Shown piece after piece: positions 12,295 to 46,192 of a stretch of 64,000 bases of DNA. The DNA is from an uncultured Gammaproteobacteria bacterium. GTDB taxonomy: Bacteria > Patescibacteriota > Microgenomatia > Daviesbacterales > UBA10151. A model generated the notes under the pieces. The model did not search any database. It was not told the DNA's origin and saw only the letters and a list, made by a program, of their open reading frames with translations. A program made the position numbers and the translations under genes. The DNA lies in NCBI GenBank assembly GCA_964415615.1, contig CAYQAW010000004.1, positions 21,543 to 85,542 of the forward strand. Reading direction: 5' to 3'. Numbering within the stretch: the stretch's first letter is position 1; each line of letters opens with the position of its first letter.

Positions 12295-15030
12295 ATGCTT
12301 CGGATTTCTTCTGTTAAACTTATTATAGTATTTTTATTAATACCCTTAATTTTAAATAGTATTTGGTTTAGTAATGGTTTATTGCACGGAGGAGGCGAAG
12401 AGGGAATTTTGTACTATAACCCTGAAAAAATCTTGCGTCTCTCAACTTCTGTTTGGGTTGATTTTACAGCTGGCGCTTCTGTGATGTTGTGGTTGCAACA
12501 AATGCCTGTGGCTTATCTTTCCATGGTATTTGAAAAATTTGGTTTACCGCATTTCCTTTTCCAAGCAATAATTTTTTATACCCTTATGACTATTGGGGTA
12601 TTTTCGACCTATTATTTAACGCTTACTGTACTGAAAAAAGACGAAGAGGATGATGCTGCAAGCAATAAAAATTCAAAGATTATTGCTTTTATTTCAGCCG
12701 TTTTCTATCTATTTAACCCTTTTACGATCAGTCAGATTTGGGGAAGAAGTCTATCTACGCAATACTTTGCATTTGCTCTTTTTCCATTGACTCTTTTGCT
12801 GTTTTACCTAGGCTTTAATAGAAAGAAATATATTTTTGGGCTTTTTGCTGTGTTAGCATCCTCTGCATTGGCTCTGGCGTATCAATTTTTGACTTTTATA
12901 ATTGTTTATTGGCTAGTAATATTAATTTTTTTCATCCATAGGTTAGTTATATCTAATAATAGAACTAAAGAAGCACTTTTTGGTATTAAGTTTTTTTTCT
13001 TAACCTCTATTTTCTGGTTTTTTCTAAATGCCTGGTGGTTTGTGCCGTTATTCTTATCTTTTGGGAATATTAACTCGGTTGGTACGCCTCACGCAGAAGA
13101 TAATTTAGGATCACTTTTAGGCGTAAGCAGGAATTATCCCTTAGAGGTAATTGTTAGGTTATTACATAAGGGGTATTTTTTTGATTTTACAGCATATAGC
13201 CAGATTTATTCTACAATCCCTTTCCAGCTTATAAGCCTTGTTCCATTTCTTCTGGTAATTTTGGGGCTTATTAAGATATTAAAAAACAAAGAACAGGTAA
13301 AGCTAAGGTTTTTTGTTATATTGCTTGTATTGGGTTGTATTATTTCAGCAGGAGCTAACCCGCCTTTTGGATGGTTGTTTGTATGGCTTTTCAAATCAGT
13401 ATTTGTACTACAAGCTTTTAGGAACCCTTTTGAGAAATTTGGCCTTGTTTACGCTTTAGGTTACAGTGTTATATTTGCCTATGGATTGGTTTATTTCTTA
13501 AATAACAAGAAATCTAAAAAATTCTTGCTTTTCTTAGTGCTTTTCTTAACCTGTATTGTTTATGCTTGGCCGATGTGGACTGGAAGGGTAATTGCCGGAT
13601 ATGACAAAAAGATCGGTCTGGATATACCTACATATTATAGCGATTTACGGAAGTGGTTGAGCGAGCGAGGAGAAGATTATAGAGTACTGATGACACCGAT
13701 ATGGGTAGGAGATTCAGCTTTCTACCAATGGAATGATGCAGCTAGATATCAGGGTAGCGATCCAATGATTTATATGTTAGACCAGGGGGTAATTTCAAAT
13801 AGCGCCCGTGGAGCTTATTATTCGGAGTTTATTACTTATGTAAGAAATCATATGCAAAGGGAGGATGTTGTTCCAGCGCTTTTCCTTCTTAGGACAAAAT
13901 TTCTAGTAGACAGAAAAGATGCAATTTTAGTTACTGATACAGAGAAAGAGCATTATAAGTTTTTGGCATCAAATATATATCCTCCTTTAGGGAAAGACAG
14001 TAATCTTAAAAGCATCTGCCAAAATAAAATCGCAGACGCTAAGCCTACTGGTGTGGCTTGGGTTACTTGTACTCTCAATAAGGAAAATACCGACTTAAGT
14101 AATATAAAGTATTTGCATATTAAAATAAAAACTGATGTTCCTGCTAGTGTGGAAGTATCATTGCGGGATACAAAAGATGCAGGGATTGTATGGCATGGAA
14201 GAGTGGACCCGGAATATAGTACAGATACTAATGACTGGCAGTATATAACTATTCCTTTAAGGAGTCCGGCTGACAACAATAGTAATATAGATTTATCTAA
14301 AAGTAACCTAATTGAGATATGGGCATATCTTAAGGATCATCCAGAAGTATCGGTTAATAAGATTGAAATTGCAGAGATTAAGCTTGATCCAGGGACAGAA
14401 AAACGGATAAATGAATTTAGACAAGTAGCGGAGCTTGGTAAGTTAACAGTTTTTGAACCAACTAATTTTAACTCTCCGCCTGAGTTTGGGAGTTTATCGT
14501 CAATTGCGAAAGTTCAAGGATTTAGTCAATTATTTGAGAAAGCAAATGAGGACAGAAGCCAAATTGACAAGAAGGGGTTTGTCTTAACTTCGCAGAATCT
14601 CCAGAAGGATCTGCAGAGTTTACCGGATGAAGTCCCTTTGAGAATTATTGATAAAAATAAGCTTTCTGAAACCAGGTATTGGTTGCAAGCTGCTAAGGAC
14701 CAAGGCGCAGGTTTATTACTGCTTAGTAAGACTTTTGATCCTAATTGGAAAGTTATTGCAGGAGTGAGTAAAGATAGACTTTCGGGTAATATCTTTGACG
14801 ATTTAAAGTTACTTAAACTAGCTACTTTACCAGAGGACAATCATTTCGTGGTTAATGGCTATGCTAATTTATGGAAGATTGATGGCAAGGATAATCAGTA
14901 TGCGATTGTATTTATCCCACAGATAATTGCAGAAATAAGCTTAAAGGTTTCGATATTCAGCTTGCTAATTATTTCTGGGCTTATTTTATTATGGGGAATC
15001 AAAAAACGTATAATTTCAAAATTCTATTAA
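12295..15030 (+). CDS. Giant polytopic membrane protein, putative GT-C glycosyltransferase (YfhO/AftD-like), paralogue family member 1
   Basis: 911 aa. About 14 predicted TM helices at the N-terminus ('GGGEEGILYYNPEK', 'FRNPFEKFGLVYALGYSVIFAYGL'). A large hydrophilic C-terminal domain ends 'FDPNWKV...VNGYANLWKIDG' and a final TM. It shares these motifs with 36357, 40289 and 43487. Confidence 0.6.
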   Translation: MLRISSVKLIIVFLLIPLILNSIWFSNGLLHGGGEEGILYYNPEKILRLSTSVWVDFTAGASVMLWLQQMPVAYLSMVFEKFGLPHFLFQAIIFYTLMTIGVFSTYYLTLTVLKKDEEDDAASNKNSKIIAFISAVFYLFNPFTISQIWGRSLSTQYFAFALFPLTLLLFYLGFNRKKYIFGLFAVLASSALALAYQFLTFIIVYWLVILIFFIHRLVISNNRTKEALFGIKFFFLTSIFWFFLNAWWFVPLFLSFGNINSVGTPHAEDNLGSLLGVSRNYPLEVIVRLLHKGYFFDFTAYSQIYSTIPFQLISLVPFLLVILGLIKILKNKEQVKLRFFVILLVLGCIISAGANPPFGWLFVWLFKSVFVLQAFRNPFEKFGLVYALGYSVIFAYGLVYFLNNKKSKKFLLFLVLFLTCIVYAWPMWTGRVIAGYDKKIGLDIPTYYSDLRKWLSERGEDYRVLMTPIWVGDSAFYQWNDAARYQGSDPMIYMLDQGVISNSARGAYYSEFITYVRNHMQREDVVPALFLLRTKFLVDRKDAILVTDTEKEHYKFLASNIYPPLGKDSNLKSICQNKIADAKPTGVAWVTCTLNKENTDLSNIKYLHIKIKTDVPASVEVSLRDTKDAGIVWHGRVDPEYSTDTNDWQYITIPLRSPADNNSNIDLSKSNLIEIWAYLKDHPEVSVNKIEIAEIKLDPGTEKRINEFRQVAELGKLTVFEPTNFNSPPEFGSLSSIAKVQGFSQLFEKANEDRSQIDKKGFVLTSQNLQKDLQSLPDEVPLRIIDKNKLSETRYWLQAAKDQGAGLLLLSKTFDPNWKVIAGVSKDRLSGNIFDDLKLLKLATLPEDNHFVVNGYANLWKIDGKDNQYAIVFIPQIIAEISLKVSIFSLLIISGLILLWGIKKRIISKFY

Positions 15031-16037: not shown

Positions 16038-16043
16038 AGATAT

Positions 16044-16904: not shown

Positions 16905-16909
16905 CTGGA

Positions 16910-17581: not shown

Positions 17582-17622
17582 AGACCTTATTTGTTTGCTT
17601 ACTGCTATAATCATAAGAAGAG

Positions 17623-19149
17623 ATGTCTAAGTCTAAAATTGGCTATTTTCTATTAATTATTTTATTGTCTTTTATCAGCTTTTATCCTGCTTTTAATTTT
17701 TCTTTTATTGTTGATGATTGGTACTTACTTTGGGGAGTATTTTTTGACAAGACCATTATTGCAGAATACCTTCGGACTCAACACCCAAACGTTGTTTATG
17801 AATTTTTACTACTAGCTCCAATTTTTAAATTTAATCCATTTTATTATCAAGTGGTGGGATATATTCTTAAGGTGGTAGATTCTTTTACTGTTGGCCTTTT
17901 AATATTGAGCGTTACAAAATCTCGCACTGCTGCTTTGTTTTCCAGTATCACTTTTGCTGCCTCAGAAATTGGAATAGAAGCGTTTACCCGCATAGGTGCG
18001 CAAAATTCTGCCCTGCTTATCCCGACTTTATCTTTAGGATTTTATTTTTGGTTTAAAGCCAAGGAAGGAAACTCAATTACCAAGTATTTGGTTTCTTTAA
18101 TGTTTATAGTCCTGGGTCTTTTAGGTGATCCAGGGACCGGGATAGTGATTGTACCGGTAATTGTTTTATGGGAAGTATTAAACCTTATCCAGAAGTACTC
18201 AAGACAAAACTTAAAACGGGTCCTTATTCATACAGGTTTACTATTTTTAACTATAATCTTTATTACGAGGATCTTCTTAGATTCTAAGATTTCTGATAGA
18301 CAAGATTATATCTCTAAACATTTAATATTTATTGCGAATAATCTATTCTTTACAACAGCTAATTTCCTGACGTCTATTGGAAACTTTTTAATGGGATGGG
18401 TTATCTCTTTTCCAGAGTACACTCATCTGGGAAGTCCAAGCATAGTGACAATGATTTTTGGAGGAGCTTTTGTTATCAGTATTGCAATTTTGGGGATGAT
18501 TTTTATTTTAAAGAAAAAGGAAAGCTCCAAAGTAGTATTATTTTTATCCATCTTTTCTCTATTATTTTATCTGCCAAGTTGGCTTACTCAAACCCACTAT
18601 GTGGAAGGGGGAGCTATTTCCGCAGCTTCAAACCGCTATTTTGCCATTTCTAGTATAGGTCTATTAGGACTAATTTCATATCTAATTACTATAATAAAGA
18701 GTACTAATTTCAGATTCATTGTGATTGCCTTGGTGGTTTTATTACAACTATGGAGTGCAAACAGGGTTTTGATACAAGAAGCCAAATATAGAACTACTAA
18801 AGTTCAAAATATACTCTATAGCCAAATTAATAAAGATGCTCCTAAAGGAAGCGAACAGAGAAGTCTTTATGTATTTTTAGGTAATAGTTGGCTGAGGATC
18901 GTGGGACTTGGGTGGAATGGTTTTTTCCCACTTGCTCTACAAAGAGGAATTATTAATATAAAGGAGTTTCCTGCAATTGTTAATAATTTGCAGCTTGCTA
19001 AAGAGGATATTTGCCCTTTAGATAAGTCTACGCCCAAATATAGCCTTGCTGATATGTATGCTTGGGAAGTTGACGAGCAGTCTATTTATAATGTCACAGA
19101 GCAAGCAAGAAAATTGGTTAATGACAGCTGTGCTGGTTTATCTAGGTAA
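17623..19149 (+). CDS. Polytopic membrane protein, possible GT-C-type glycosyltransferase
   Basis: 508 aa and highly hydrophobic with many predicted TM helices. An early acidic loop 'IVDDWYLLW' resembles the DE/DD motif of GT-C enzymes. No firm assignment. Confidence 0.5.
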   Translation: MSKSKIGYFLLIILLSFISFYPAFNFSFIVDDWYLLWGVFFDKTIIAEYLRTQHPNVVYEFLLLAPIFKFNPFYYQVVGYILKVVDSFTVGLLILSVTKSRTAALFSSITFAASEIGIEAFTRIGAQNSALLIPTLSLGFYFWFKAKEGNSITKYLVSLMFIVLGLLGDPGTGIVIVPVIVLWEVLNLIQKYSRQNLKRVLIHTGLLFLTIIFITRIFLDSKISDRQDYISKHLIFIANNLFFTTANFLTSIGNFLMGWVISFPEYTHLGSPSIVTMIFGGAFVISIAILGMIFILKKKESSKVVLFLSIFSLLFYLPSWLTQTHYVEGGAISAASNRYFAISSIGLLGLISYLITIIKSTNFRFIVIALVVLLQLWSANRVLIQEAKYRTTKVQNILYSQINKDAPKGSEQRSLYVFLGNSWLRIVGLGWNGFFPLALQRGIINIKEFPAIVNNLQLAKEDICPLDKSTPKYSLADMYAWEVDEQSIYNVTEQARKLVNDSCAGLSR

Positions 19150-19840
19150 AGTTATTTTTGGGTGAAAGTTCATTTAGTAAAACTTTAATATTCTCCCAGC
19201 CAGTTTTAAGGGACCGCATAGAAGTTTCATTGAATACTCGTTTGCCTTCTTTGGTAGGAAATTCGGTGATTTTGATCTTAAGCTTAAGAGCTCTTATTAC
19301 TTGCTCGTAATCGGGTGCAATTGCATTTGGAATCTTAATTCCCAATTTATTATATACAGATCTTGAAAATGCCCGATAACCTTGAGTTATATCAGTACAA
19401 AAGAATTCTTTATTCCCCCAAAAAGTGTTCGCCGCTTTGCCAAGGCCTTGGCAGAACCATTTTCTACTTTTTATTAATTGATCATCTTCTTCATTAATTG
19501 CTTTCTTGATCATTCTGCTGGCAATAATAAACCCAACTCCTTTTCTAAGCAGGGAAACAAACTTTAGAATAGCTTCTGGATCCATATTGCCATCCGGGTG
19601 GAAAAATATCAGACAATCTTCTTTGGTATTTCCGAAAGCAGACTCGTAAGCTCCTCCAACTCCCGGATATCTTTGCGAGAATACCTTAATTTTTTTACTT
19701 TGCCAAAATTTTCTGGTGCCATCGATCGAGTTTCCATCTATAATGTAGGTTTTATTAACTGCATGAAAGGGAATCTTATTGAAAATATATTCACAATTTT
19801 TCTTCTCGTTTTTGGTAAATATTACTAAGGCAATTTTCAT
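19142..19840 (-). CDS. Glycosyltransferase family 2
   Basis: 'MKIALVIFTKNEKKNCEYIFNKI...YIIDGNSIDGT' is a GT-A fold N-terminus (DPM1/GtrB-like). Start set at ATG 19840. Confidence 0.65.
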   Translation of the reverse strand: MKIALVIFTKNEKKNCEYIFNKIPFHAVNKTYIIDGNSIDGTRKFWQSKKIKVFSQRYPGVGGAYESAFGNTKEDCLIFFHPDGNMDPEAILKFVSLLRKGVGFIIASRMIKKAINEEDDQLIKSRKWFCQGLGKAANTFWGNKEFFCTDITQGYRAFSRSVYNKLGIKIPNAIAPDYEQVIRALKLKIKITEFPTKEGKRVFNETSMRSLKTGWENIKVLLNELSPKNNFT

Positions 19841-20558
19841 AGGAAAAAGTATATTAGAATCTAAGGTAATAAACAATTATCTGAGCATGGGTCATAATTA
19901 ATTTACCCATACTCTCCTTGTTGTTTGTAAACAACGTACAAAGATTGTATCATATGTGTTACTTAAGAATTGGTTCTTTAGTCAACACATTCAAAATTAC
20001 TGCTACCTGGTACAAAAAGATCACTGTTAGTAAATATCCTGCTACCTTTAACTCACCTCTAACAGATAAATGGTACTGAAAAGATTTTCATGAACTTTCA
20101 AAGAACTTACTGAGGCTAGAATTGGCAAGACCAATTTATCAATTGAAACAATCACATCCAATCCATAGCCAAAAACCCAGCCTCTGTGATGTGATTTACT
20201 CCTGAAGCATCTTTGTTAACCTACCTTAAGCCTTTTGGGATAATCCCCAGTTTTTGATCTTTTGAATGCCATAGTCTTCCTAAAGCAGCAAACGTCCTAC
20301 TTTCCACATCTAGTCTTCCCAGGTCAAAAAGGTGTTCCTAATAAACCACATTATTGCAGTTAGGATGTAAATTAAAACTGGCTTTCTCCACCCTGACAAT
20401 CTCCTATCAAAAGTCCTTCCGTTGGAAATATTACTATCAGGAAATTCAATAGTTTCTCTCAAACCATCTCCCCTTCTATCTTTTTTAGACAAGAAGATTT
20501 TAGAGGGTGATTTTTAATTTTGCAAATTCTTATTAAAGTGCTACAATATTAAAAGTAA

Positions 20559-20586
20559 GAATTATATCCCAACTTCAATTATATAA
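20559..20586 (+). promoter_or_regulatory. 28-bp conserved upstream element, copy 1 (gaattatatcccaacttcaattatataa)
   Basis: Exact repeat of the element at 22624..22650. Internal direct repeat AATTATAT-N9-AATTATATA. Lies 20 nt upstream of ATG 20607. Confidence 0.4.
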
Positions 20587-20606
20587 CTTGACAATCTATT
20601 AATTTA

Positions 20607-22484: not shown

Positions 22485-22623
22485 AACAAAGAATTGGCTC
22501 ATTGATCTGGATAATACACCCAATTTCGAACCAAACTTCACTCAGTTAGCAACAATGAGGGCAATATTTCTTAAAAAGTTGACTGGAAATGAATTGAAGA
22601 TTGGTATACTATATTAATAGTGG

Positions 22624-35304: not shown

Positions 35305-35310
35305 AAATAA

Positions 35311-36363: not shown

Positions 36364-39300
36364 AAAAAGCATACTCAATTACACTCCTTTTTCTGGTACT
36401 CTCGGCAATATTAATAATTTGCTGGTTTAGGTTTGGACTGATGTATGGTGGTGGTGATACTGGCCTACCGACATACAATCCGAAGGTCATGGCTGGTATT
36501 GCCAGTAATATTTGGTGGGATTCATTGGCACCTGGTATACCTGTAGCCCAGGGTTTAACTTCAGTCCCCATGCTTTTTCTTTTATCTATACCGCAAATTT
36601 TAGGGGCAGGTCCAGTTTTAATACAGGAATTGTTGTTTTTTAGCCTGCTTTTTTTAATGGGTTATGGCATGTATCTTTTGGCCTTAAGTATTTTTGGCAA
36701 ATCAAATTATTTGATGGCAATTGCTTCAGGAGTGTTTTATATGTTCAACCCTTATATGATGGTTCAAATTTGGCACCGGTTTATCCACAACTCAATGTTT
36801 TTTGTTTCATTTGTACCTTTTTTGGTCATGAGTTGGCTAAGGTGGATTAGAGAGCGTAAGCCTATATCATTGTTGGTTTTCCTGCTACTGAACTTTTTGG
36901 CTGTCTATATCTTTGGCACTATTGCTTTTATAGTTGGTTTTTGGCTATTCCTTTTTCTGCTGACTGTACTTGAGGGAGTAATACCATGGAAAGGGAAAAA
37001 GGCAATGATAGAGTTATCTTTGGCTTTTGTGATCGGACTAGTTTTTTGGCTTTTAACCAACAGCTGGTGGATTATTCCTACTTTCAATATCAGTCCAACT
37101 CTATTTGCTGAGCAGCATACAACCAATGATAGTTTGGCCACACTAATGGATCTTTCTGCACAAACAATCTTGCCATATACACTTCGTCTTATTAACCCTT
37201 TTTATTTATATTGGCATGCTGATTGGGGAGACATTTATCAAAATATCATTTTCTTATCAATTTCCTGGCTGTTTGTACTGGTAGTATTTATTGGTTTTTT
37301 AAAAGGTTTAAAACAGAGGCAATATGTCAAATGGAGTTTACTTTTTTTAATATTCATTATCTTAGGAAAAGGAGCAGCACCACCATTTGGTTTCCCCTAT
37401 ATTTGGGGTTTTTCCAACTTCTTTCCACTGGGGGTGATTAGGAATCCTTTTGAAAAACTGGGGATTTTACTGCCTTTAATTTATGCCATTCTTTTTGCTT
37501 ATGGCTTGAAGATCTTAATGTCTTATTTAAACAACCGTATTGGTAAAGGCAAGGCAAGCTTTATTTTGGTAGTTTTTATTATCTCAAATTTAGCTTTCTT
37601 GTGGCCTATGTTTGCTGGTAAGCTATTTGGTACTTTAGATAAACAAAACTTTGTGCAAGTACCACCAGATTATGGTTTGGCAGATAATTGGATTCGAAAA
37701 GATCTCGCTGGTACAAAAGAAGGTAGAATCTTGCACCTGCCACTCTCAAGGTCTGAAAGCATTACATATAATTGGCAGAATGGTTACAATGGAGTTGAGC
37801 CATCTGCTGCTTTATTTACCTCTCTTCCTTCTATAGCTAGGAATCTAGATATCCCCAAGGTTAGTGGTGCTATTTCTGCCCTATCTTTAATATTCCATAA
37901 ACCATATGCCAAAGACCCTGCAGTAATACTAAAGCTGTTACAGGATTTTAGTATCAAATATATTATCATACATAATGATGTAGATTGGTTAAAAAACGAA
38001 CTATCTAATCCTCGAGAGGTTGAAGAAGTTTTGGCAAAATTAGATTTCCTGGAAAAAGAAATTAGTTTTGGAAGCTTATCAATCTATAAAATAAAAGATC
38101 AATTTTTTCAGAGAGAAATAACTATTTCAGATAACTTGCAATTACTTTATAACACAGATGACAAAGTGTTTTGGCCTTGGATGGTAAGTACTCCATCAGC
38201 AGAGATGGTGAGTATATATAACGGCCAAGAGGGCAACATTTTAAATCAAGCCAATAAAATTATAGTTTTCCCAGATCGGCAAATATCAGTTAAGGATATA
38301 CAGGTGCCAAAGTTCAGGGGCAATTTAGATGACTTTGTTGCTGTTAGAGCTCTGCCAAATAACCCCTTATATTTTCTATTCCAAGCAAAAGAGTGGCTAA
38401 GCCTTATAGGTAAAAAACTTGATGAAGAGCAAAAAGATATTTTCGTTCTTGCTGAGAAAAGGTTGATTGAGATGTATAAGATTAAAAGAATGAGGGAAAT
38501 GGGAGCGATAAACCAAAAAGAAGGAAATGAAATTATTCTATCATTGATTAACAGATATCAAGACGTGTTAAACAAAATTTTCCAGTCTGAGGCTGGTTTT
38601 AATAACTTTTTGGTTGCAACTCCAAGATTTAGTACGACAGATACTTTCCTCAAGCACATTAGCCTGCTAAAGGAGCTGAGCGAGAGCACCACTGAACCAA
38701 GCGAAAAGAATATTGCTGAAGAAGCGATAGAGCTGATTAACAGAAACTTAATAAGGGCAAACTTCTTCCCTAAATACCCTCAGATATCTCAGCTAAGTGA
38801 AAATAAGTTAGATAAGAATTATGGCAGCGAGCTATATAGGTTCAACGTTCCTATAAAATCAAACTACGAAATCTTTATGACTAATCCCCAAGTTAGGAGC
38901 ATATATCCGAATGGTTTATCTCAAATTAATTTCCAAATAAACGACCATTACAAGAGTGTGCCGTTAAACGAGAAAAATGGAATGATTTATTTAGGGGAAG
39001 AGAAAATGAATGTAGATGAATATCAGACAGTGATGCCAAGATTGTCCTCTGTTAATTTGGCGCCCAGCATAAATGATTGGCAGACGTCAGGTGATGTGGT
39101 TGTTTCCGAGCAGGCAGGTACTATAGAGTTGTCGTCTGATAAGAAAAATTCTGCCTATATTGAAAGCGATATTAAACCTTTGTTTGGGCAGGATTTGTTT
39201 CTAGTTGCCTTTGATACAAAACTAGTATTAGGAAAAAGGATTAGGGTGCAGTTAACTCAGGATATAGATCCATTTGATAAACTCTTAAATAAAACAATAT

Positions 39301-39941
39301 ATCGTTATGATAATTATTTCACACCGGTCGATAAAGATGGATGGAATCAGTTTAGTGTAATGTTGGATTTACATTTTATCGCTCAAAAAGCCAAGCTAAA
39401 GATTCAGGTGGAACCTTGGGATGATTGTTTAGTGGTTTTAGCTGATAAGAAAAGTTGCGAAGATACGAAAAAAAGACAACAATATAATCGGCCTTCTAAA
39501 TTCTTGATCAAGAATATAAGTGTGGATAGAGTATTAAACAACGTCATCCTCCTTAGCAGTAATTTACCAGCAACTCCTTCTGCTGCTACTGCTGGCGATG
39601 TAGTACAGCGAAATAAACAAAATTCAAGTCTATATACGGGTAAAATAAGTATGAAACATCCAGGATTACTACTTTTTAAGCAATCGTTTAGCCCTGATTG
39701 GCAACTAAACCTTACCAAGGATAATAACATTTATCAGCCTACAGAGCATTTAATTGGGAACTTGTTCGCCAATGCTTGGTGGATAGATGAGGCAGGTGAC
39801 TATGATTTTACCTTAAGCTATCTTCCGCAAAAAAATATTCAGGCTGGTCTATTGTCTGCTGGACTGGGATGGGTTATATTAATCTTAATGTTAATGGTTA
39901 ATGAAAGGCATAAGTTGCGGAGGCTTGTAAAAATTAAGTGA
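36357..39941 (+). CDS. Giant polytopic membrane protein, putative GT-C glycosyltransferase (YfhO/AftD-like), paralogue 2
   Basis: 1194 aa. N-terminal membrane module with 'GGGDTGLPTYNPKV' and 'IRNPFEKLGILLPLIYAILFAYGL'. Residues ~10-566 are identical to 40289..43339. It has a unique ~630-aa C-terminal hydrophilic domain ending 'FSPDWQLNL...ANAWWIDEAGDYDFTLSYLPQ' plus a terminal TM. Confidence 0.6.
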   Translation: MVKKAYSITLLFLVLSAILIICWFRFGLMYGGGDTGLPTYNPKVMAGIASNIWWDSLAPGIPVAQGLTSVPMLFLLSIPQILGAGPVLIQELLFFSLLFLMGYGMYLLALSIFGKSNYLMAIASGVFYMFNPYMMVQIWHRFIHNSMFFVSFVPFLVMSWLRWIRERKPISLLVFLLLNFLAVYIFGTIAFIVGFWLFLFLLTVLEGVIPWKGKKAMIELSLAFVIGLVFWLLTNSWWIIPTFNISPTLFAEQHTTNDSLATLMDLSAQTILPYTLRLINPFYLYWHADWGDIYQNIIFLSISWLFVLVVFIGFLKGLKQRQYVKWSLLFLIFIILGKGAAPPFGFPYIWGFSNFFPLGVIRNPFEKLGILLPLIYAILFAYGLKILMSYLNNRIGKGKASFILVVFIISNLAFLWPMFAGKLFGTLDKQNFVQVPPDYGLADNWIRKDLAGTKEGRILHLPLSRSESITYNWQNGYNGVEPSAALFTSLPSIARNLDIPKVSGAISALSLIFHKPYAKDPAVILKLLQDFSIKYIIIHNDVDWLKNELSNPREVEEVLAKLDFLEKEISFGSLSIYKIKDQFFQREITISDNLQLLYNTDDKVFWPWMVSTPSAEMVSIYNGQEGNILNQANKIIVFPDRQISVKDIQVPKFRGNLDDFVAVRALPNNPLYFLFQAKEWLSLIGKKLDEEQKDIFVLAEKRLIEMYKIKRMREMGAINQKEGNEIILSLINRYQDVLNKIFQSEAGFNNFLVATPRFSTTDTFLKHISLLKELSESTTEPSEKNIAEEAIELINRNLIRANFFPKYPQISQLSENKLDKNYGSELYRFNVPIKSNYEIFMTNPQVRSIYPNGLSQINFQINDHYKSVPLNEKNGMIYLGEEKMNVDEYQTVMPRLSSVNLAPSINDWQTSGDVVVSEQAGTIELSSDKKNSAYIESDIKPLFGQDLFLVAFDTKLVLGKRIRVQLTQDIDPFDKLLNKTIYRYDNYFTPVDKDGWNQFSVMLDLHFIAQKAKLKIQVEPWDDCLVVLADKKSCEDTKKRQQYNRPSKFLIKNISVDRVLNNVILLSSNLPATPSAATAGDVVQRNKQNSSLYTGKISMKHPGLLLFKQSFSPDWQLNLTKDNNIYQPTEHLIGNLFANAWWIDEAGDYDFTLSYLPQKNIQAGLLSAGLGWVILILMLMVNERHKLRRLVKIK
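36384..38057 (+). repeat. 1674-bp direct repeat, copy A (identical to 40322..41995)
   Basis: Translations in three different frames and on both strands are identical between the copies, at a constant offset of 3938 bp (e.g. ORFs 36905..37141 and 40843..41079). Identity stops abruptly at 38058/41996. Confidence 0.8.
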
Positions 39942-40282
39942 AAAATAATATCTACTTATTATCCAGAATTACAATATTTTTTATTGTTTTACTGGGAGTA
40001 CTTTATATTTTGGAATATGGCTTTGTTTTTGATTCACCACATAAATTATTGAATGTCTTTCTGCTGGCTGGGCTTACTACAATAATATTTTTTAATTTAC
40101 GCCTCAGACGCTATGCTTTGATTCTTGCGATTGTTTGTTTGGCGATAATGGTTTTAACCTATATTCTATATATGCCCTACATGTTTTTACCGACTGGAGA
40201 TTTTGGTTTTAGTTTACTTATTATTACAATTGTTTCATATCTCCCTAAAATTATCAAAAAAGGTTATATCGAAAGATTTTAA
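39938..40282 (+). CDS. Small membrane protein (3 predicted TM), unknown
   Basis: 114-aa hydrophobic ORF between the two duplicated giant genes. Its start overlaps the upstream stop (ATGA-type). Confidence 0.4.
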   Translation: MKNNIYLLSRITIFFIVLLGVLYILEYGFVFDSPHKLLNVFLLAGLTTIIFFNLRLRRYALILAIVCLAIMVLTYILYMPYMFLPTGDFGFSLLIITIVSYLPKIIKKGYIERF

Positions 40283-40288
40283 TTTATA

Positions 40289-43200
40289 TTGATAATGAAA
40301 AAAACTACTATTGCCCCTTTGCTCCTTTTTCTGGTACTCTCGGCAATATTAATAATTTGCTGGTTTAGGTTTGGACTGATGTATGGTGGTGGTGATACTG
40401 GCCTACCGACATACAATCCGAAGGTCATGGCTGGTATTGCCAGTAATATTTGGTGGGATTCATTGGCACCTGGTATACCTGTAGCCCAGGGTTTAACTTC
40501 AGTCCCCATGCTTTTTCTTTTATCTATACCGCAAATTTTAGGGGCAGGTCCAGTTTTAATACAGGAATTGTTGTTTTTTAGCCTGCTTTTTTTAATGGGT
40601 TATGGCATGTATCTTTTGGCCTTAAGTATTTTTGGCAAATCAAATTATTTGATGGCAATTGCTTCAGGAGTGTTTTATATGTTCAACCCTTATATGATGG
40701 TTCAAATTTGGCACCGGTTTATCCACAACTCAATGTTTTTTGTTTCATTTGTACCTTTTTTGGTCATGAGTTGGCTAAGGTGGATTAGAGAGCGTAAGCC
40801 TATATCATTGTTGGTTTTCCTGCTACTGAACTTTTTGGCTGTCTATATCTTTGGCACTATTGCTTTTATAGTTGGTTTTTGGCTATTCCTTTTTCTGCTG
40901 ACTGTACTTGAGGGAGTAATACCATGGAAAGGGAAAAAGGCAATGATAGAGTTATCTTTGGCTTTTGTGATCGGACTAGTTTTTTGGCTTTTAACCAACA
41001 GCTGGTGGATTATTCCTACTTTCAATATCAGTCCAACTCTATTTGCTGAGCAGCATACAACCAATGATAGTTTGGCCACACTAATGGATCTTTCTGCACA
41101 AACAATCTTGCCATATACACTTCGTCTTATTAACCCTTTTTATTTATATTGGCATGCTGATTGGGGAGACATTTATCAAAATATCATTTTCTTATCAATT
41201 TCCTGGCTGTTTGTACTGGTAGTATTTATTGGTTTTTTAAAAGGTTTAAAACAGAGGCAATATGTCAAATGGAGTTTACTTTTTTTAATATTCATTATCT
41301 TAGGAAAAGGAGCAGCACCACCATTTGGTTTCCCCTATATTTGGGGTTTTTCCAACTTCTTTCCACTGGGGGTGATTAGGAATCCTTTTGAAAAACTGGG
41401 GATTTTACTGCCTTTAATTTATGCCATTCTTTTTGCTTATGGCTTGAAGATCTTAATGTCTTATTTAAACAACCGTATTGGTAAAGGCAAGGCAAGCTTT
41501 ATTTTGGTAGTTTTTATTATCTCAAATTTAGCTTTCTTGTGGCCTATGTTTGCTGGTAAGCTATTTGGTACTTTAGATAAACAAAACTTTGTGCAAGTAC
41601 CACCAGATTATGGTTTGGCAGATAATTGGATTCGAAAAGATCTCGCTGGTACAAAAGAAGGTAGAATCTTGCACCTGCCACTCTCAAGGTCTGAAAGCAT
41701 TACATATAATTGGCAGAATGGTTACAATGGAGTTGAGCCATCTGCTGCTTTATTTACCTCTCTTCCTTCTATAGCTAGGAATCTAGATATCCCCAAGGTT
41801 AGTGGTGCTATTTCTGCCCTATCTTTAATATTCCATAAACCATATGCCAAAGACCCTGCAGTAATACTAAAGCTGTTACAGGATTTTAGTATCAAATATA
41901 TTATCATACATAATGATGTAGATTGGTTAAAAAACGAACTATCTAATCCTCGAGAGGTTGAAGAAGTTTTGGCAAAATTAGATTTCCTGGAAAAAAAAGC
42001 CATCTTTGGTGATTTATCCCTATACAAGATAAAAGACAATTATTTTAAGCCTAAAATTACTATATCAGATAATATGGCATTATTGTCATTTCCTAAGTCT
42101 TCTCCAGAGGTGACATCATTTTGGCCTTGGGTTATTGTTGGGCCATCAGACTTAATTTCAATTGTTAGCTCAGAGGATAAGCAGTTTAGTATTAAAAGCC
42201 AAGAAAACTTACTTGTCCCTAGAGTAACCTTCAATAGCAGTGAAGCTTCTCCAAGTGGATTTAAGACTATTTTTGAAGTACAAAAAAAAGCTAAATATGA
42301 ACTACTAATGTCTGACGCCCAGACGAGTGACTTTTACTTAAACAACCTTTCTTCTTTAAAAGTCTCAGTAAATGGTCAAACAAATGTTTTTAATAGTAAT
42401 AAAACAGGAAGTATATTATCTTTCGGTCCAGTTGAGCTTAATCCAGGATTAAATGAGATTAATTATGGCCCGATATTATCAAAAGATTTGTTACCTGATT
42501 TTGATATATGGAATAAGATAGGAGATGTCAAAAGAATAGACCAATCTGTTTTCCAGATGAATTCTGGAGACAAAGGTTACGCTTATGTTGAAGGTAATTT
42601 AAAAGAGGGTGTGTATAGTGGAGGAGTATTAAGAGTATCTCTTGATATTTTAAATAGCTCTGAAGTATTGATGTTTATACAAATACTGCAAGATTCTGAT
42701 TTGGATGAGAAGAGTGACCATAACGGATTAAAAGGTGCTGGAGTCAGAGATATCCCAGCCATTCAATATTTCAAAGTAAATACAATGAATAATTGGCGGA
42801 GTATTAGCTTTGCTTTGCCAACTCTTCGGCAAACTACTCAAAAAGCAAGATTTCGGTTGATTATAATATCTCCTTACCAAGCTACTTTATTTCAAAGCTC
42901 AGGAGATGTATCTATTAAGAATTTTAAGGTCCAACGGCTGCTTAGTAACGCTTTGTTTCTACACAGCATAAACACTGATAATACGCCTCTTACTTCTGCT
43001 GGTGAGATGTTATTAGAGCATGAAAACAGTAGCTCTCAGTACACAGGAAAAATAAAATTAAGTAGGCCAGCCTGGTTGATATTTAAAGAGACATTTCATC
43101 CTGACTGGGAACTGAAGATTTCAGATAGCCAAGGTGAAGATATTCCAGAAAGTCATTATTTGGCTGGTTCGTTTGCGAACGCTTGGTATGTAGATAAAGC

Positions 43201-43339
43201 AGGTGAGTATAATTTTAAAATCAGCTTTAAACCACAAGACAATCTTAATATTGGATTATTTACATTAGGTTTTTCTATAATTGTGTTGCTGGGTTATATG
43301 TTTTGGACTGGAGTATATAATCTTAACAAAAAGAGATGA
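40289..43339 (+). CDS. Giant polytopic membrane protein, putative GT-C glycosyltransferase (YfhO/AftD-like), paralogue 3
   Basis: 1016 aa. The N-terminal ~557 aa are identical to 36357. It has a distinct C-terminal domain ending 'FHPDWELKI...ANAWYVDKAGEYNFKISFKPQ' plus a terminal TM. Confidence 0.6.
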   Translation: MIMKKTTIAPLLLFLVLSAILIICWFRFGLMYGGGDTGLPTYNPKVMAGIASNIWWDSLAPGIPVAQGLTSVPMLFLLSIPQILGAGPVLIQELLFFSLLFLMGYGMYLLALSIFGKSNYLMAIASGVFYMFNPYMMVQIWHRFIHNSMFFVSFVPFLVMSWLRWIRERKPISLLVFLLLNFLAVYIFGTIAFIVGFWLFLFLLTVLEGVIPWKGKKAMIELSLAFVIGLVFWLLTNSWWIIPTFNISPTLFAEQHTTNDSLATLMDLSAQTILPYTLRLINPFYLYWHADWGDIYQNIIFLSISWLFVLVVFIGFLKGLKQRQYVKWSLLFLIFIILGKGAAPPFGFPYIWGFSNFFPLGVIRNPFEKLGILLPLIYAILFAYGLKILMSYLNNRIGKGKASFILVVFIISNLAFLWPMFAGKLFGTLDKQNFVQVPPDYGLADNWIRKDLAGTKEGRILHLPLSRSESITYNWQNGYNGVEPSAALFTSLPSIARNLDIPKVSGAISALSLIFHKPYAKDPAVILKLLQDFSIKYIIIHNDVDWLKNELSNPREVEEVLAKLDFLEKKAIFGDLSLYKIKDNYFKPKITISDNMALLSFPKSSPEVTSFWPWVIVGPSDLISIVSSEDKQFSIKSQENLLVPRVTFNSSEASPSGFKTIFEVQKKAKYELLMSDAQTSDFYLNNLSSLKVSVNGQTNVFNSNKTGSILSFGPVELNPGLNEINYGPILSKDLLPDFDIWNKIGDVKRIDQSVFQMNSGDKGYAYVEGNLKEGVYSGGVLRVSLDILNSSEVLMFIQILQDSDLDEKSDHNGLKGAGVRDIPAIQYFKVNTMNNWRSISFALPTLRQTTQKARFRLIIISPYQATLFQSSGDVSIKNFKVQRLLSNALFLHSINTDNTPLTSAGEMLLEHENSSSQYTGKIKLSRPAWLIFKETFHPDWELKISDSQGEDIPESHYLAGSFANAWYVDKAGEYNFKISFKPQDNLNIGLFTLGFSIIVLLGYMFWTGVYNLNKKR
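40322..41995 (+). repeat. 1674-bp direct repeat, copy B
   Basis: See copy A. Confidence 0.8.
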
Positions 43340-43503
43340 TTATTCTTTTAGCGAGTGAAATTGGATTTATAATAAGCGGTTTAATGATTCTACTGGGTCA
43401 TACTGGTTTAGCAGATAAGAGTTTAATAGGAGTATTCTTTATTACTTTATTTGGTGTGATGGTTTATAGTTTTAAACTTTTTAAAAATGATCAAAAACAG
43501 TAA
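43336..43503 (+). CDS. Possible small membrane protein (55 aa), translationally coupled
   Basis: The ATG overlaps the TGA of 40289..43339 (ATGA). The hydrophobic sequence is 'MIILLASEIGFIISGLMILLGHTGLADKSLIGVFFITLFGVMVYSF...'. It is below the ORF-track length cutoff and weakly supported. Confidence 0.25.
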   Translation: MIILLASEIGFIISGLMILLGHTGLADKSLIGVFFITLFGVMVYSFKLFKNDQKQ

Positions 43504-46192
43504 AACAGTGTATTATAAGCATCCCCTATTAGCAACTTGTATCATTATACTAAGCTGTTTCTGGATTTTTTGGTCTCCTGGAATCAGAGTAGCAACTGAT
43601 TACCATCTGTCTTCCAAAGTAGGTTTGCTAAGTATTTTTCCTTGGAGCTGGAGAGAATTTGAGGTGGGGGATGGATTAGGAGAGTATACCGCTGTGACTT
43701 TATGGAGCCAGCCGCTTTTGTCATTATCTTCCTTATTAAATTTTACTTTTGTTGGTGACGAGGTTCCAACAAAAATAATAGGAGCGATTATACTAATAGG
43801 TGGCATACTGGGTATCTGGAAATTGTTAGATTATTTTAAGCTTGGAAATTGGGGAAAATGCTTAGCTTCGGTATTCTTTATTTTGAACAGCTTTTTTTTA
43901 TTAATGTTTGATGGAGGGCAATTTTCACTTAATTTAGCCTATGTTAGTATTCCTTATGCCTTGTTAGCCTTTATAAAACTGGTAGAGTCTGGTCTCTGGC
44001 AGGATAGAGTTAAGTTTACTATTACTATCTTACTAATATCCTCTCTTGATATAAGAATATTATTTTTGTCGGTAATTATTTTAGGATTATACCTTTTGGG
44101 TAAGATTCTAGTTAAGTTTAAAGCGAGAGAAACGGTCAAACTATTTAAAAATTTGTATTTATCCGTTTTGTTTACTGGCGTTATTTTAGTTGGATTCCAT
44201 GCTTATTGGTTATTACCTTCTTTCATTGCTAAGTCTCCTAGTTTACCCTTAACTTATGATCGCTTAGATCAAGTAAGATTTTTAAGCTTTTCTTCTATAG
44301 CCCATTCTTTATTCTTACAGCAACCTCACTGGTATAAAAATATTTTTGGTCACATTAGCCAGCCTCAATTTGAGTTTATATTGATACCAATACTAGTATT
44401 TCTATCTCCGATATTAATTAAAAGGAATCGTTGGATAACCTTTTGGTTAGGTGTGGCTTTGCTAGGAGTGTTTTTGAGCAAGGGTTCACAAGATCCTTTG
44501 TCTGGTATATATTTGTGGTTATTTAGTTATTTTCCTTTCTTCTCTGTTTTTAGAGATCCAGTTAAGTTCTATTTTTTAACAGCTTTAGCCTACAGTGTGT
44601 TAATAGGTTTTACTACTGATGCTATTACCAAACTTCAAAGGATCAATCGGATTACTAGTCTGAGTATTAAATTAGCGCCTAAATTAATTTTACTTTACCT
44701 GATTATATTGATCAATCCAATGTATTTAGGCCAAATGCTGGGTATGATCTCACAACCAGTAAATTTAGAAAAATATAGAGGTATGGCAAATATCTTAAGG
44801 GCTGACTCATCGTTTTCCCGAGTTTTATGGTTACCATTTAGCCAACCACTTAGCTATTCTAGTCTTGCGCACCCTTTACTTGAGGCCTCCAGACTATCTA
44901 CTAAAAGACCCTTTGCAATAGGAACAGTTGGGACATATGAGACAAATAACTTCCTGAGAGAAGCTCCATATATGGGTGAAATCTTTGATGTGGCAGGGAT
45001 TGGTTATATTGTAAATCCTTATCTTGATCCAAGAAGGGATGATATGCATCCTGATAATATTAAGTATTACTATACTTTTTTGGATCAGCTTTCAAGAAGG
45101 CCCTGGCTTACAAGATTAGAGAACCCTTACATACCTGTTTTAAAGACGAAGCAACATCAAGATAAATTTTTTGTTTCCTCTAATACTTGGTGGGTTATTG
45201 GATCAGACAATATCTATAATCAGGCAACGACAAGCGCGAATTTAAGACTTGCCAACAATGCCATGATATTTGTTGAAGAATCACCAGGTTTGGGTAATAG
45301 AATTGATGAGTTATCAGATGTTAAGGTGATACTAAACAATAAGACTAATACAGACTTTGCAGCAAGCTTTATCGATCCTTTAAAACTAATTTTTCCAGCG
45401 AAGAGTTTAAACTTTAGTCCTGATAAATCTGGCTGGTGGAAGAGGGAAGCAGCAGATTTAGTTTCTTGGAGAGCTTTTTTACGCAGTAAATACAATATTG
45501 ATAACCTGGATTTTGATTTAGGCGGCGGATGGGCAATAGGAGAAGGAAAATTAGAATTAAGAATTATGAATTATGAATTAAGGCAAGACAAGATATTACT
45601 AGCAAGGGTGATGGAGAGTTCAAGAAGTGGAGAATTAAAATATTATCAGGATGGGAAATTACTTGGTCAGATAAATACTAAGAATCAAGAGAACAATGTG
45701 AGATGGTTTGAGGTAGGTAGATTAAATTCTGATAGGGCATTAACAATTGTTTCAGAGGGAGATATTAATGTGGTGAATGCTTTAGCGGTTTTAGATAAAA
45801 ACGAATGGTTAGGTTATCAAGATAAAGCTAAGGAGCTGCAGGAAAGGGTTGTAACTTTTGATGAGAAGAATGCTCAAAATATCTCACAACCTGCAGTTAG
45901 ATATGAACAGATAAATCCTACTAAATATAAAGTAATTATAAGTAATTTGACTCAATCTGCATTTTTGGTATTTTCTCAGAATTATGATGGTTTATGGAAA
46001 ATAGATAATCAACCTTCTCTGCCAGTATATAGTCTGCTAAATGGGTTTAGAGTAGATAAAAATGGGGAATATACAGTTGAATTTGAGCCTCAAAAATATA
46101 TAATTCCAGGGTTAATAGTAACAGCTATTACTTGTTTCTCTTTAATTTTTATCTTAGTTTTCACCACAAAAAAATTCAAATCTAGGCTATAA
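43487..46192 (+). CDS. Giant polytopic membrane protein, paralogue 4 of the YfhO/AftD-like family
   Basis: 901 aa. 'FRDPVKFYFLTALAYSVLIGF' corresponds to the 'RNPFEKLGILLPLIYAILFAYGL' motif. It has a hydrophilic C-terminal domain ending 'NGFRVDKNGEYTVEFEPQ' plus a terminal TM. Confidence 0.6.
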   Translation: MIKNSKTVYYKHPLLATCIIILSCFWIFWSPGIRVATDYHLSSKVGLLSIFPWSWREFEVGDGLGEYTAVTLWSQPLLSLSSLLNFTFVGDEVPTKIIGAIILIGGILGIWKLLDYFKLGNWGKCLASVFFILNSFFLLMFDGGQFSLNLAYVSIPYALLAFIKLVESGLWQDRVKFTITILLISSLDIRILFLSVIILGLYLLGKILVKFKARETVKLFKNLYLSVLFTGVILVGFHAYWLLPSFIAKSPSLPLTYDRLDQVRFLSFSSIAHSLFLQQPHWYKNIFGHISQPQFEFILIPILVFLSPILIKRNRWITFWLGVALLGVFLSKGSQDPLSGIYLWLFSYFPFFSVFRDPVKFYFLTALAYSVLIGFTTDAITKLQRINRITSLSIKLAPKLILLYLIILINPMYLGQMLGMISQPVNLEKYRGMANILRADSSFSRVLWLPFSQPLSYSSLAHPLLEASRLSTKRPFAIGTVGTYETNNFLREAPYMGEIFDVAGIGYIVNPYLDPRRDDMHPDNIKYYYTFLDQLSRRPWLTRLENPYIPVLKTKQHQDKFFVSSNTWWVIGSDNIYNQATTSANLRLANNAMIFVEESPGLGNRIDELSDVKVILNNKTNTDFAASFIDPLKLIFPAKSLNFSPDKSGWWKREAADLVSWRAFLRSKYNIDNLDFDLGGGWAIGEGKLELRIMNYELRQDKILLARVMESSRSGELKYYQDGKLLGQINTKNQENNVRWFEVGRLNSDRALTIVSEGDINVVNALAVLDKNEWLGYQDKAKELQERVVTFDEKNAQNISQPAVRYEQINPTKYKVIISNLTQSAFLVFSQNYDGLWKIDNQPSLPVYSLLNGFRVDKNGEYTVEFEPQKYIIPGLIVTAITCFSLIFILVFTTKKFKSRL

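Follow-up and report, generated by a model that had tools for sequence, protein, structure and literature searches.

Four genes in a cell-surface glycan locus of an uncultured Candidatus Daviesbacteria bacterium (Patescibacteria/CPR) encode AftD-like (PF11847) GT-C enzymes and not enzymes of the YfhO type. The genes, referred to below as A, B, C, and D, lie in a 64-kb stretch of DNA that was analyzed as a whole (the window). Our overall account, which comprises four AftD-like GT-C paralogues, sugar transfer at the outer face of the membrane, and gene conversion between B and C, is in our judgment likely to be correct.

Four paralogous genes in a surface-glycan locus

Glycan-synthesis genes take up almost the whole window. 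They encode GT2 and GT4 glycosyltransferases, methyltransferases, sugar-nucleotide enzymes, a Wzx flippase, a Wzy_C-like protein, and five PMT_2 GT-C proteins; with the four AftD-like genes, the window thus holds at least nine GT-C enzymes. No tRNA or Rfam elements were found in it. The features considered here are listed in Table 1.

Table 1. Positions of the AftD-like genes, the exact repeat, and associated genes in the window.
Feature	Position	Strand	Remarks
Gene A, A-type AftD-like GT-C	12295..15030	+	911 aa; GT-C module, ectodomain, C-terminal beta-sandwich and TM
GT2, AglJ/dolichyl-P-hexose synthase type	19142..19876	-	adjoins a PMT_2 GT-C gene; NCBIfam similarity
GT2 glycosyltransferase	35311..36363	+	directly 5′ of B, 7-nt overlap with B start; Pfam Glycos_transf_2, E 3.6e-33
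Gene B, B-type AftD-like GT-C	36357..39941	+	1194 aa; longer ectodomain with helical insert
Exact repeat, copy 1	36384..38057	+	1674 bp; B codons ~10–567; TM bundle and most of the soluble GT-C domain
Small protein	39938..40282	+	114 aa, 3–4 TM by hydropathy; between the B- and C-type genes
Gene C, C-type AftD-like GT-C	40289..43339	+	1016 aa from TTG
Exact repeat, copy 2	40322..41995	+	1674 bp; in C
Gene D, divergent D-type AftD-like GT-C	43487..46192	+	901 aa; family without Pfam model
Wzx/MOP-type flippase	46201..47475	+	directly 3′ of D; Pfam Polysacc_synt, E 7.9e-22; NCBIfam MOP flippase
GT2, nearest to polyprenyl-phosphate sugar synthases	50662..51381	+	NCBIfam AglJ (E 1.3e-30), PgfS, PpgS, ArnC-type

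An earlier note on this DNA had described four open reading frames for paralogous membrane proteins of common architecture. All four are present (the database entry for C starts at ATG 40295 and has 1014 aa), and their relatedness was borne out by pairwise and profile-profile comparisons. A is 28 to 29% identical to B and C over ~500 aa (E 1e-56), and D is 23 to 24% identical to A, B, and C (E ~1e-7). When family profiles were compared using hhalign, A matched the BC family over 523 columns (E 2.3e-81), and the D family matched the BC family over 407 columns (99.9%, E 5.8e-36). Similarity of this order is far above chance and, at the level of sequence, confirms A to D as true paralogues. Two other large membrane proteins were considered as further members of the family: the one at 29990–32407 on the minus strand showed no relation on comparison, and the one at 20607–22484 gave a weak hint only (54%, E 1.3e-4).

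The set of four genes had been called unusual; it is syntenic and conserved across Daviesbacteria genomes and is not specific to the window. The gene order around A to D is kept in other Daviesbacteria, the GT2-MT-GT2-B order recurs in relatives, and the Wzx/MOP flippase keeps its position after D. In the related loci L001 and L002, homologues of the 114-aa protein occupy the same place, and in L002 and L003 paralogues of it follow C. This protein, a candidate flippase or accessory subunit, has no Pfam or NCBIfam match, including no GtrA match. The GT2 at 50662 is a candidate synthase of the lipid-linked donor; all NCBIfam similarities of this GT2 and of the one at 19142 (AglJ, PpgS, ArnC-type) lie below the curated cut-offs. 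Since these candidate polyprenyl-P-sugar synthases adjoin PMT_2 genes, they may serve the PMT_2 enzymes instead.

A to D share one plan: an N-terminal GT-C module, made up of ~11 TM helices and a soluble alpha/beta domain, leads into an ectodomain that is rich in beta structure and varies between the proteins, and the chain closes with a homologous beta-sandwich and one TM helix. In C, the 11-TM bundle occupies roughly aa 1–420, the soluble GT-C domain 421–600, CBM-like beta-sandwiches 600–895, the C-terminal beta-sandwich 896–980, and the TM anchor 981–1013. Where 12 to 14 N-terminal TM helices had been proposed, the AF2 models of C (pLDDT 89.9, pTM 0.88) and D (pLDDT 93.2, pTM 0.90) suggest ~11 plus juxtamembrane helices; the model of C has 11 TM helices plus the last one. 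The N and C termini of all four proteins are basic, and the single C-terminal TM helix that had been described is present in 4/4, followed by a few basic residues. The size given for the hydrophilic domain, 350 to 630 aa, also needs revision: for the extracytoplasmic part, the C and D models give ~445 to 560 aa, and hydropathy gives ~450 aa for A and 740 aa for B. The conserved soluble GT-C domain is included in these lengths, and the middle part alone is truly variable.

A structural check of the ectodomains, which had also been proposed, returned CBM-type beta-sandwiches. Local Foldseek matches of the C and D models were to the EngBF C-terminal region, CBM4, CBM61, CBM6, and CBM35 (E 1e-7 to 1e-2), those of the D ectodomain being CBM6/35-like. 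The predicted ectodomains are therefore consistent with a CBM fold, and glycan binding by them is putative. The helical insert of the B ectodomain is DUF5667 in orthologues; PF18915 and PF11847 are both found in B orthologues. Weak Pfam matches to CBM30 in A (13.9 bits), HepT-like in C, Rrp40_N in B, and DUF6541 in D were dismissed as chance.

The exact repeat shared by B and C

Not described in the earlier note is a 1674-bp stretch of DNA that is 100% identical in B and C. Alignment of the two copies with MAFFT revealed zero differences and an abrupt divergence on both flanks. The repeat covers almost the whole GT-C module and ends near the module end. At the protein level, the first ~625 aa of B and C are 93% identical, compared to 28% for the last ~350 aa and ~28% for the ectodomains; the ectodomains of B-type orthologues are 40 to 48% identical. 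N-terminal modules cluster by genome (97%, 83%, 83%, and 78% within versus 65 to 75% between genomes), while ectodomains cluster by type across genomes. Judged from these sequence comparisons, recent gene conversion between the tandem paralogues best accounts for the identity of B and C over 1674 bp.

Identical N-terminal halves could also arise as an assembly artefact, i.e., a repeat collapsed or copied in the MAG. Exact repeats of 1.7 kb are hard for short-read assemblers, and full-length B and C proteins were found on a single contig only. However, two independent Logan assemblies from different runs, both 100% identical to the window, begin at position 41966, which is 30 nt (k-1) inside the repeat end, as at a true branch of the read graph. 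Such a break at the repeat edge indicates that the 1674-bp repeat is real. In addition, the B/C pairs of other genomes have shorter 100%-identical protein tracts, and their DNA identity ranges from 83% over 1758 bp in one genome to no tract. We consider an artefact very unlikely and retain gene conversion as the explanation.

Relationship to AftD and candidate catalytic residues

Comparison to the DUF3367/AftD family, which the earlier note had suggested, proved informative. The current Pfam model, PF11847 (GT-C_AftD, formerly DUF3367), has a gathering score of 26 bits; C exceeded it with 30.9 bits, A scored 12.3 bits and remained under it, and B and D had no PF11847 match in the direct Pfam scan. 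Since the N terminus of B is 100% identical to that of C over aa ~10–567, the missing match of B is, on this sequence evidence, a filter or score effect. Of 21 diverse relatives of the A, BC, and short types, 20 matched PF11847 (E ≤ 0.1; best 2.9e-19), and A-type orthologues carry this domain. D-type homologues have no PF11847 match, and ten distant D-type members are without any Pfam match. The D-type family profile collected 1843 cluster representatives (50% identity) at E ≤ 1e-30, and, as delineated by these profile searches, D belongs to a large sister family beyond any Pfam model.

The only NCBIfam match of A to D was to MmpA for D (NF053599, 32 bits, residues 296–466). With a cut-off of 210, this score is far too low; membership of D in MmpA was rejected, and we take the match to reflect the AftD-like 11-TM module. 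MmpA (Cgp_3165) of Corynebacteriales is reported in a preprint to be homologous to the first 11 TM helices of AftD. In contrast to D, it is ~540 aa long, lacks a large CBM ectodomain, and acts in mycomembrane biogenesis, which is absent from CPR bacteria.

When PDB sequences were searched with single sequences or with three single-family profiles, AftD was not reached, and noise alone was returned. A profile broadened with short PF11847-type relatives (A4) matched AftD (6W98/6WBX) with an E value of 7e-8, and its positions 36–565 aligned to AftD 45–570, i.e., the whole GT-C superdomain. The structure predictions lead to the same protein. AftD was the best PDB match in Foldseek for the models of both C (6W98, E 1.6e-19, TMq 0.51) and D (E 1.1e-12, TMq 0.43), with 6W98, 6WBY, and 6WBX ranking ahead of STT3, PglB, AftA, Emb, and ArnT. 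A and B are linked to the AftD-like fold by their homology to the modeled C. The agreement between sequence profile and structure predictions supports the GT-C fold and, with it, the earlier proposal of GT-C-type extracytoplasmic transferases with diversified ectodomains; the HMM searches assigned no transporter family to these proteins.

AftD, an arabinofuranosyltransferase of Mycobacteriales (PDB 6W98), resembles A to D in devoting its first ~600 residues to a GT-C superdomain of 11 TM helices with a soluble alpha/beta domain. Common to both are an acid just past TM1, the R-x-P loop, and, within the soluble domain, an acid of the (D/E)-P type. In the periplasm, AftD has CBM-type beta-sandwiches, and the predicted ectodomains of A to D are consistent with such folds; next in both come a beta-sandwich and a TM helix that leads back through the membrane. 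AftD differs in sequence (~12% identity) and in length (~1400 aa versus 900 to 1200 aa). Instead of the one C-terminal TM of A to D, it has TM12 and a TM13–16 four-helix bundle that binds acyl carrier protein. A to D also differ from AftD in belonging to a CPR bacterium and in being present as four paralogues per locus.

The earlier note had likened the four proteins to YfhO (PF09586), which would make them GT-C enzymes that add single sugars from C55-P-sugar to teichoic-acid-like wall polymers. The plan described for YfhO is indeed the same: a GT-C module with many TM helices precedes a large extracellular domain, and a TM helix stands at the C terminus (PMC8035078). The locus also fits a three-component logic in which GT2, flippase, and GT-C work together, and NCBI gives one A-type orthologue, P0277, the name “YfhO family protein.” However, A to D have no PF09586 match at E ≤ 1, and none of the 21 relatives, P0277 included, matched PF09586 (0/21 at E ≤ 0.1), compared to 20/21 for PF11847. 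Neither a precomputed YfhO domain among the 351 homologues listed nor a YfhO-named entry among the PDB matches listed for the C and D models was seen. The C-terminal signature on which the comparison drew is real and homologous across the three families (local hhalign 97.7 to 99.6%, E 1e-12 to 1e-24). With AftD as the best structural match, we give a YfhO-type identity little credence.

Assignment to the AftD-like enzymes directs attention to the residues that are essential in AftD, namely K39, D41, E251, K361, and D474 (AftD paper). The motif RNPFEK/FRDP, pointed out in the earlier note, is conserved in 90 to 119 homologues per family. All 119 BC-type and all 90 A-type homologues carry RNPFEK without change (R376-N-P-x-E-K381 in A). 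In the D-type version, F-R-D-P-x-K-F, F355 and D357 are found in 118/118 sequences, and R356 and K360 in 117/118. The R-N-P of RNPFEK aligns with AftD R367-L-P. AftD K361 falls on a nonconserved column 6 residues before the R-x-P motif, and the invariant family K367 of RNPFEK aligns with a hydrophobic AftD residue, not with K361. No clearly conserved counterpart of AftD E251 was found, the acids of that region being partly conserved.

A second motif that had been proposed, GGG(D/E)xG..YNP, holds in A, B, and C; D is without the GGG context, and its D38 stands at the place equivalent to the acid of the motif. Wherever a homologue has a residue at this column after TM1, it is acidic, D or E (BC D34: 108 D, 10 E; A E35: 69 E, 21 D; D D38: 117/117). 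The acid is located 3 residues before L-x-x-x-N-P, which aligns with AftD L42-A-I-N-P, and would correspond in position, within 2 residues, to AftD D41. The acid of the soluble domain is similarly conserved (BC E481: 105 E, 14 D; A D489: 89/90; D E485: 118/118). E481 and D489 belong to a G-x-(E/D)-P motif aligned with D474-E475-P of AftD; in the profile alignment, the family G-V-E-P falls on AftD R-D474-E475-P. Y484-E485, invariant in D-type proteins, occupies a position similar to that of the G-x-(E/D)-P acid, as judged by position and not by direct alignment to AftD. D142-G-G-Q is also invariant in the D-type.

These patterns bear on the suggestion, also made in the earlier note, that A to D are glycan-binding proteins on a transferase-like anchor, i.e., noncatalytic scaffolds or pseudo-enzymes. 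AftD itself scaffolds, forming a complex with TmaT (preprint), AftD K361 and E251 are without clear counterparts, and the activity of A to D is putative. Yet the acids matching AftD D41 and D474/E475 and the R-x-P loop are invariant in 90 to 119 homologues per family, a pattern difficult to account for unless they serve catalysis or bind substrate, and the GT-C module, not the CBM part, is the most conserved region. A purely noncatalytic role therefore seems scarcely probable. It is likewise scarcely probable that A to D act like oligosaccharyltransferases, with proteins such as S-layer or pilin and not glycans as acceptors: STT3 and PglB form the second tier of structural matches and a nearby GT2 is most like AglJ of archaeal S-layer N-glycosylation (NCBIfam), but AftD is a far better match (E 1e-19 versus 1e-6), the ectodomains match carbohydrate-binding folds of the CBM type, which are also present in AftD, an enzyme with a glycan acceptor, and the sole WW pair (NSWW, C 235–238) aligns with the AftD membrane segment WWIV, not with the OST WWDxG loop.

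Proposed function and significance

As AftD-like GT-C enzymes, A to D would probably act outside the cell and attach sugars carried on lipids to a glycan of the cell surface. Cytoplasmic GT2 enzymes would load a sugar on polyprenyl phosphate, and the lipid-linked sugar would be flipped across the membrane. The catalytic superdomain, formed by the N-in bundle of ~11 TM helices and the soluble alpha/beta GT-C domain, is predicted to lie at the outer face of the membrane, with the CBM-like beta-sandwiches and the terminal beta-sandwich following it and the last TM helix returning the chain to the cytoplasm. Each GT-C enzyme would then pass the sugar on to a surface glycan, either still growing or complete, that its CBM-like ectodomain holds. 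Catalysis would involve three invariant elements: the post-TM1 acid (close to AftD D41, within two residues), the (D/E)-P acid of the soluble domain (aligned with E475 of the AftD D474/E475 pair), and the R-(N/D)-P..K loop. No families of the decaprenyl-phospho-arabinose (DPA) pathway were seen among the window genes, and the transferred sugar is therefore probably not arabinofuranose.

Joint action of a GT-A enzyme, a flippase, and a GT-C enzyme is a general scheme (PMC8035078). The locus resembles such multicomponent transmembrane glycosylation systems in having candidate GT2 synthases of a lipid-linked sugar (C55-P-sugar in those systems), a flippase (GtrA/Wzx in those systems), a GT-C enzyme with an extracellular domain, which there decorates a wall polymer, and a small 3- to 4-TM candidate accessory protein. 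It differs in that A to D have no PF09586/PMT_2 match, the 114-aa protein is not recognized as GtrA, and many GT-C genes, of two kinds, are present.

Since the paralogues differ mainly in the ectodomain, we infer that they differ in acceptor or linkage context. By the same reasoning, B and C, with their DNA-identical catalytic module, would share donor and chemistry and act on different acceptors. Tentatively, and with somewhat less than even confidence, we suggest a modular locus in which the catalytic GT-C module is homogenized by recurrent gene conversion and the CBM-type ectodomains stay distinct, together with a D-type that constitutes a large GT-C family beyond Pfam and NCBIfam models. 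If this is true, a CPR bacterium with a tiny genome applies one donor chemistry to several acceptors.

CPR bacteria (Patescibacteria) have genomes of ~1 Mb and live attached to other cells, and their surface glycans therefore probably mediate this lifestyle. Literature searches for PF11847 and for GT-C enzymes in CPR returned nothing; to our knowledge, work on AftD-type enzymes has dealt almost exclusively with mycobacteria, where the enzymes are of interest as drug targets. Shorter, ACP-independent relatives of AftD with interchangeable CBM ectodomains are possible simpler models of acceptor recognition, and the B/C pair is a natural domain-swap experiment, in which one identical catalytic half is joined to two ectodomains. 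A profile model of its own for the D-type family would allow thousands of “hypothetical proteins” to be annotated as GT-C.

Relatedness and family assignment of the four membrane proteins

The four paralogous ORFs proposed in the earlier note, here A to D, were confirmed in the translated window (see table). In BLASTP, A aligned with B and C at 28 to 29% identity over ~500 N-terminal residues (E 1e-56), and D aligned with A, B, and C at 23 to 24% identity over ~280 to 370 residues (E ~1e-7). Profile-profile comparison of family alignments made from database homologues matched the D family to the B/C (BC) family with 99.9% probability (E 5.8e-36, 407 columns) and A to BC with an E value of 2.3e-81 over 523 columns; these values leave no doubt about either homology. 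The C-terminal ~100 residues (a beta-sandwich and a TM anchor), aligned separately, were homologous in all three families (hhalign 97.7 to 99.6%, E 1e-12 to 1e-24). The C-terminal signature noted earlier is therefore real.

The suggested likeness to YfhO has to be replaced by a likeness to AftD. No YfhO (PF09586) match was found in A, B, C, or D at E ≤ 1 or in any of 21 diverse relatives, including an A-type orthologue named "YfhO family protein" by NCBI. PF11847 (GT-C_AftD, formerly DUF3367) was detected in C (30.9 bits, cut-off 26) and in 20 of the 21 relatives (best E 2.9e-19); A reached only 12 bits, and B and D gave no match. Searches with single sequences and single-family profiles reached no solved structure. 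A broader profile, A4, matched mycobacterial AftD (6W98/6WBX) with an E value of 7e-8, profile positions 36 to 565 covering AftD 45 to 570, i.e., the entire GT-C superdomain. The sole match of D among curated models, below threshold, was MmpA, which is reported to be similar to the first 11 TM helices of AftD. A search of 1.84 billion cluster representatives returned 9508 D-type members at E ≤ 1e-3 and 1843 at E ≤ 1e-30; no Pfam model was present in 120 homologues with precomputed domains or in 10 distant members that were scanned.

For AlphaFold2 modelling, the family alignments served as input; both models were of high confidence, with pLDDT 89.9 and pTM 0.88 for C and 93.2 and 0.90 for D. 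In Foldseek searches of the PDB, AftD was the top match of both (C, E 1.6e-19, TMq 0.51; D, E 1.1e-12, TMq 0.43), followed by STT3, PglB, AftA, EmbA/B, and ArnT. Local matches of the beta-rich ectodomains were to carbohydrate-binding modules (CBMs), namely, for C, the EngBF C-terminal region, CBM4, and CBM61, and for D, CBM35 and CBM6. The secondary-structure strings of the models are consistent with a bundle of 11 TM helices and juxtamembrane helices, which is followed by a soluble alpha/beta domain reaching residue ~600 and, after that, by beta-sandwiches and a single TM helix at the C terminus. AftD (bioRxiv 10.1101/2019.12.22.885152) has the same architecture except at its C-terminal end: It is longer, shares ~12% sequence identity, and carries TM12 and an ACP-binding TM13-16 bundle, whereas the four proteins have a single terminal helix. 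No genes of an arabinose-donor pathway were seen within the window. Pfam, profile search, and Foldseek thus support the general reading of diversified extracytoplasmic GT-C transferases.

Conserved motifs and active-site counterparts

The central-loop motif holds throughout: RNPFEK is present in 119 of 119 BC-type and 90 of 90 A-type homologues, and its D-type counterpart, F-R-D-P-x-K-F, has F355 and D357 in 118/118 and R356 and K360 in 117/118. The N-terminal GGG(D/E)xG..YNP motif, also described as shared, stands for A, B, and C, its acid being D or E wherever a homologue has a residue at that column, but not for the D-type, which lacks the glycines and has an invariant Asp (D38) right after TM1.

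Correspondences were read from the alignment of AftD with the profile (chain numbering is native numbering + 3). AftD D41 directly precedes "LAINP," and the invariant acid of the family lies three residues before the aligned "L-P-x-Y-N-P." The R-N-P of RNPFEK aligned with AftD R367-L-P, and G-V-E481-P (C) and G-S-D489-P (A) with D474-E475-P. The latter acid is E in 105 and D in 14 BC-type proteins and is conserved in 89 of 90 A-type proteins; in the D-type, Y484-E485 is invariant at a comparable place. AftD K361 and E251 had no clear conserved counterparts. The residues that do correspond probably cluster in space.

Synteny and an exact repeat shared by B and C

Nearly all homologues of A to D are from metagenome-assembled genomes of Patescibacteria (CPR), namely Candidatus Daviesbacteria and Microgenomates. 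The proteins encoded in the window are themselves on record at NCBI, on a 99.7-kb contig. In other genomes, A-, B-, C-, and D-type genes occur together on single contigs, with the conserved local order GT2, methyltransferase, GT2, B, small membrane protein, C, sometimes a second small protein, D, Wzx, GT2. The four-gene set, earlier considered unusual, is therefore a lineage feature rather than a local oddity.

The small 3- to 4-TM protein (102 to 114 aa) is encoded 3′ of the B-type gene; some genomes have one 3′ of the C-type gene as well. It has a conserved C terminus, "SYLPxIIKKGYxEKF," and no Pfam or NCBIfam match, and may be a flippase or GacJ-like accessory of AftD-like enzymes. The 148-bp C-D spacer holds a 55-aa ORF (Logan gene calls) overlapping both genes; this ORF may be what is left of the gene for a 102-aa small membrane protein that relatives carry in the same place.

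B and C are 100% identical in DNA over 1674 bp, from codon ~10 to ~567, with abrupt divergence at either edge. The tract thus stops near the C-terminal boundary of the GT-C superdomain (residue ~600); past it, the ectodomains are only 28% identical. Two independent short-read Logan assemblies from different runs (SRR4343430 and SRR4343428) match the window at 100% identity, and their contigs both begin at 41966, exactly 30 nt short of the end of the repeat. A genuine repeat branch in the k-mer graph of the reads would produce such a start, which argues against an assembly artefact.

In five genomes, the N-terminal modules reach 97, 83, 83, 78, and 78% within a genome, above the 65 to 75% seen in most comparisons between genomes, and other B/C pairs contain 100%-identical protein tracts of 150 to 200 residues. 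Ectodomains group by type across genomes (46 to 50% identity to orthologues for C-type and 40 to 48% for B-type). In other genomes, the DNA of B and C in this region varies between 83% identity over 1758 bp and mere scattered patches of 66 to 74%, so the probable gene conversion is sporadic.

Coordinates of features in the window and in loci from related genomes (L001 to L003)
Feature	Sequence	Coordinates	Strand	Remark
A	window	12295-15030	+	911 aa
B	window	36357-39941	+	1194 aa
C	window	40295-43339	+	1014 aa; ORF from 40289
D	window	43487-46192	+	901 aa
B/C repeat	window	36384-38057 = 40322-41995		
PMT_2 (ArnT/PMT-like) GT-C genes, five	window	17623-19149, 48414-49952, 53814-55253, 55228-56586, 57622-59148	+	
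Polyprenyl-phosphate sugar synthase-like GT2s	window	50662-51381, 19142-19876		AglJ, PpgS, ArnC-like; below curated cut-offs
Small membrane protein	window	39938-40282	+	
Small membrane protein	L001	6445-6789		
Small membrane protein	L002	5854-6186, 9470-9778		
Small membrane protein	L003	9470-9778		
C-D spacer ORF	window	43336-43503	+	55 aa
Large membrane protein	window	29990-32407	-	805 aa
Membrane protein	window	20607-22484	+	625 aa
Nucleotidyltransferases	window	10140-10913, 10922-11650	-	tandem
UDP-glucose/GDP-mannose dehydrogenase	window	5212-6519	+	
UDP-glucose/GDP-mannose dehydrogenase	window	24931-26283	-	

A putative transmembrane glycosylation locus

Glycan genes make up nearly the whole window. 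They encode sugar-nucleotide enzymes, numerous GT2 and GT4 enzymes, methyltransferases, acetyltransferases, a Wzy_C-like protein, and a Wzx flippase directly 3′ of D. Together, A to D and the five PMT_2 genes, two of which adjoin the candidate polyprenyl-P-sugar synthases, bring the number of GT-C genes to at least nine within this 64-kb stretch of a CPR genome. In multi-component transmembrane glycosylation (PMC8035078), a polyprenyl-P-sugar is synthesized by a GT-A and translocated by a flippase before a GT-C transfers the sugar outside the membrane; CBM domains of large GT-Cs such as AftD hold the acceptor polymer. The gene content of the locus fits this scheme. Here, too, GT2-made polyprenyl-P-sugar would be flipped and transferred by GT-Cs outside the membrane, and by analogy the CBM-like ectodomains of A to D may hold the acceptor polymer.

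The uncharacterized 805-aa protein (~15 hydrophobic segments) gave only a faint TMEM260-like (protein O-mannosyltransferase) Pfam match and showed no relationship with the AftD-like profile. The 625-aa protein (~11 TM helices, no Pfam match) aligned weakly with that profile over 253 columns (hhalign 54%, E 1.3e-4); it may represent a fifth GT-C that has diverged very far. The locus holds further paralogue pairs: the tandem nucleotidyltransferases are 31% identical and the two dehydrogenases 34%. Duplication thus appears to be how the region has expanded in general.

Overall, sequence comparisons and predicted models suggest that the four proteins are new members of an already known kind, the AftD-like GT-Cs. 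Their interest is modest and lies in the single-anchor, ACP-independent architecture, the large D-type sister family without a profile model, and probable gene conversion limited to the catalytic module.
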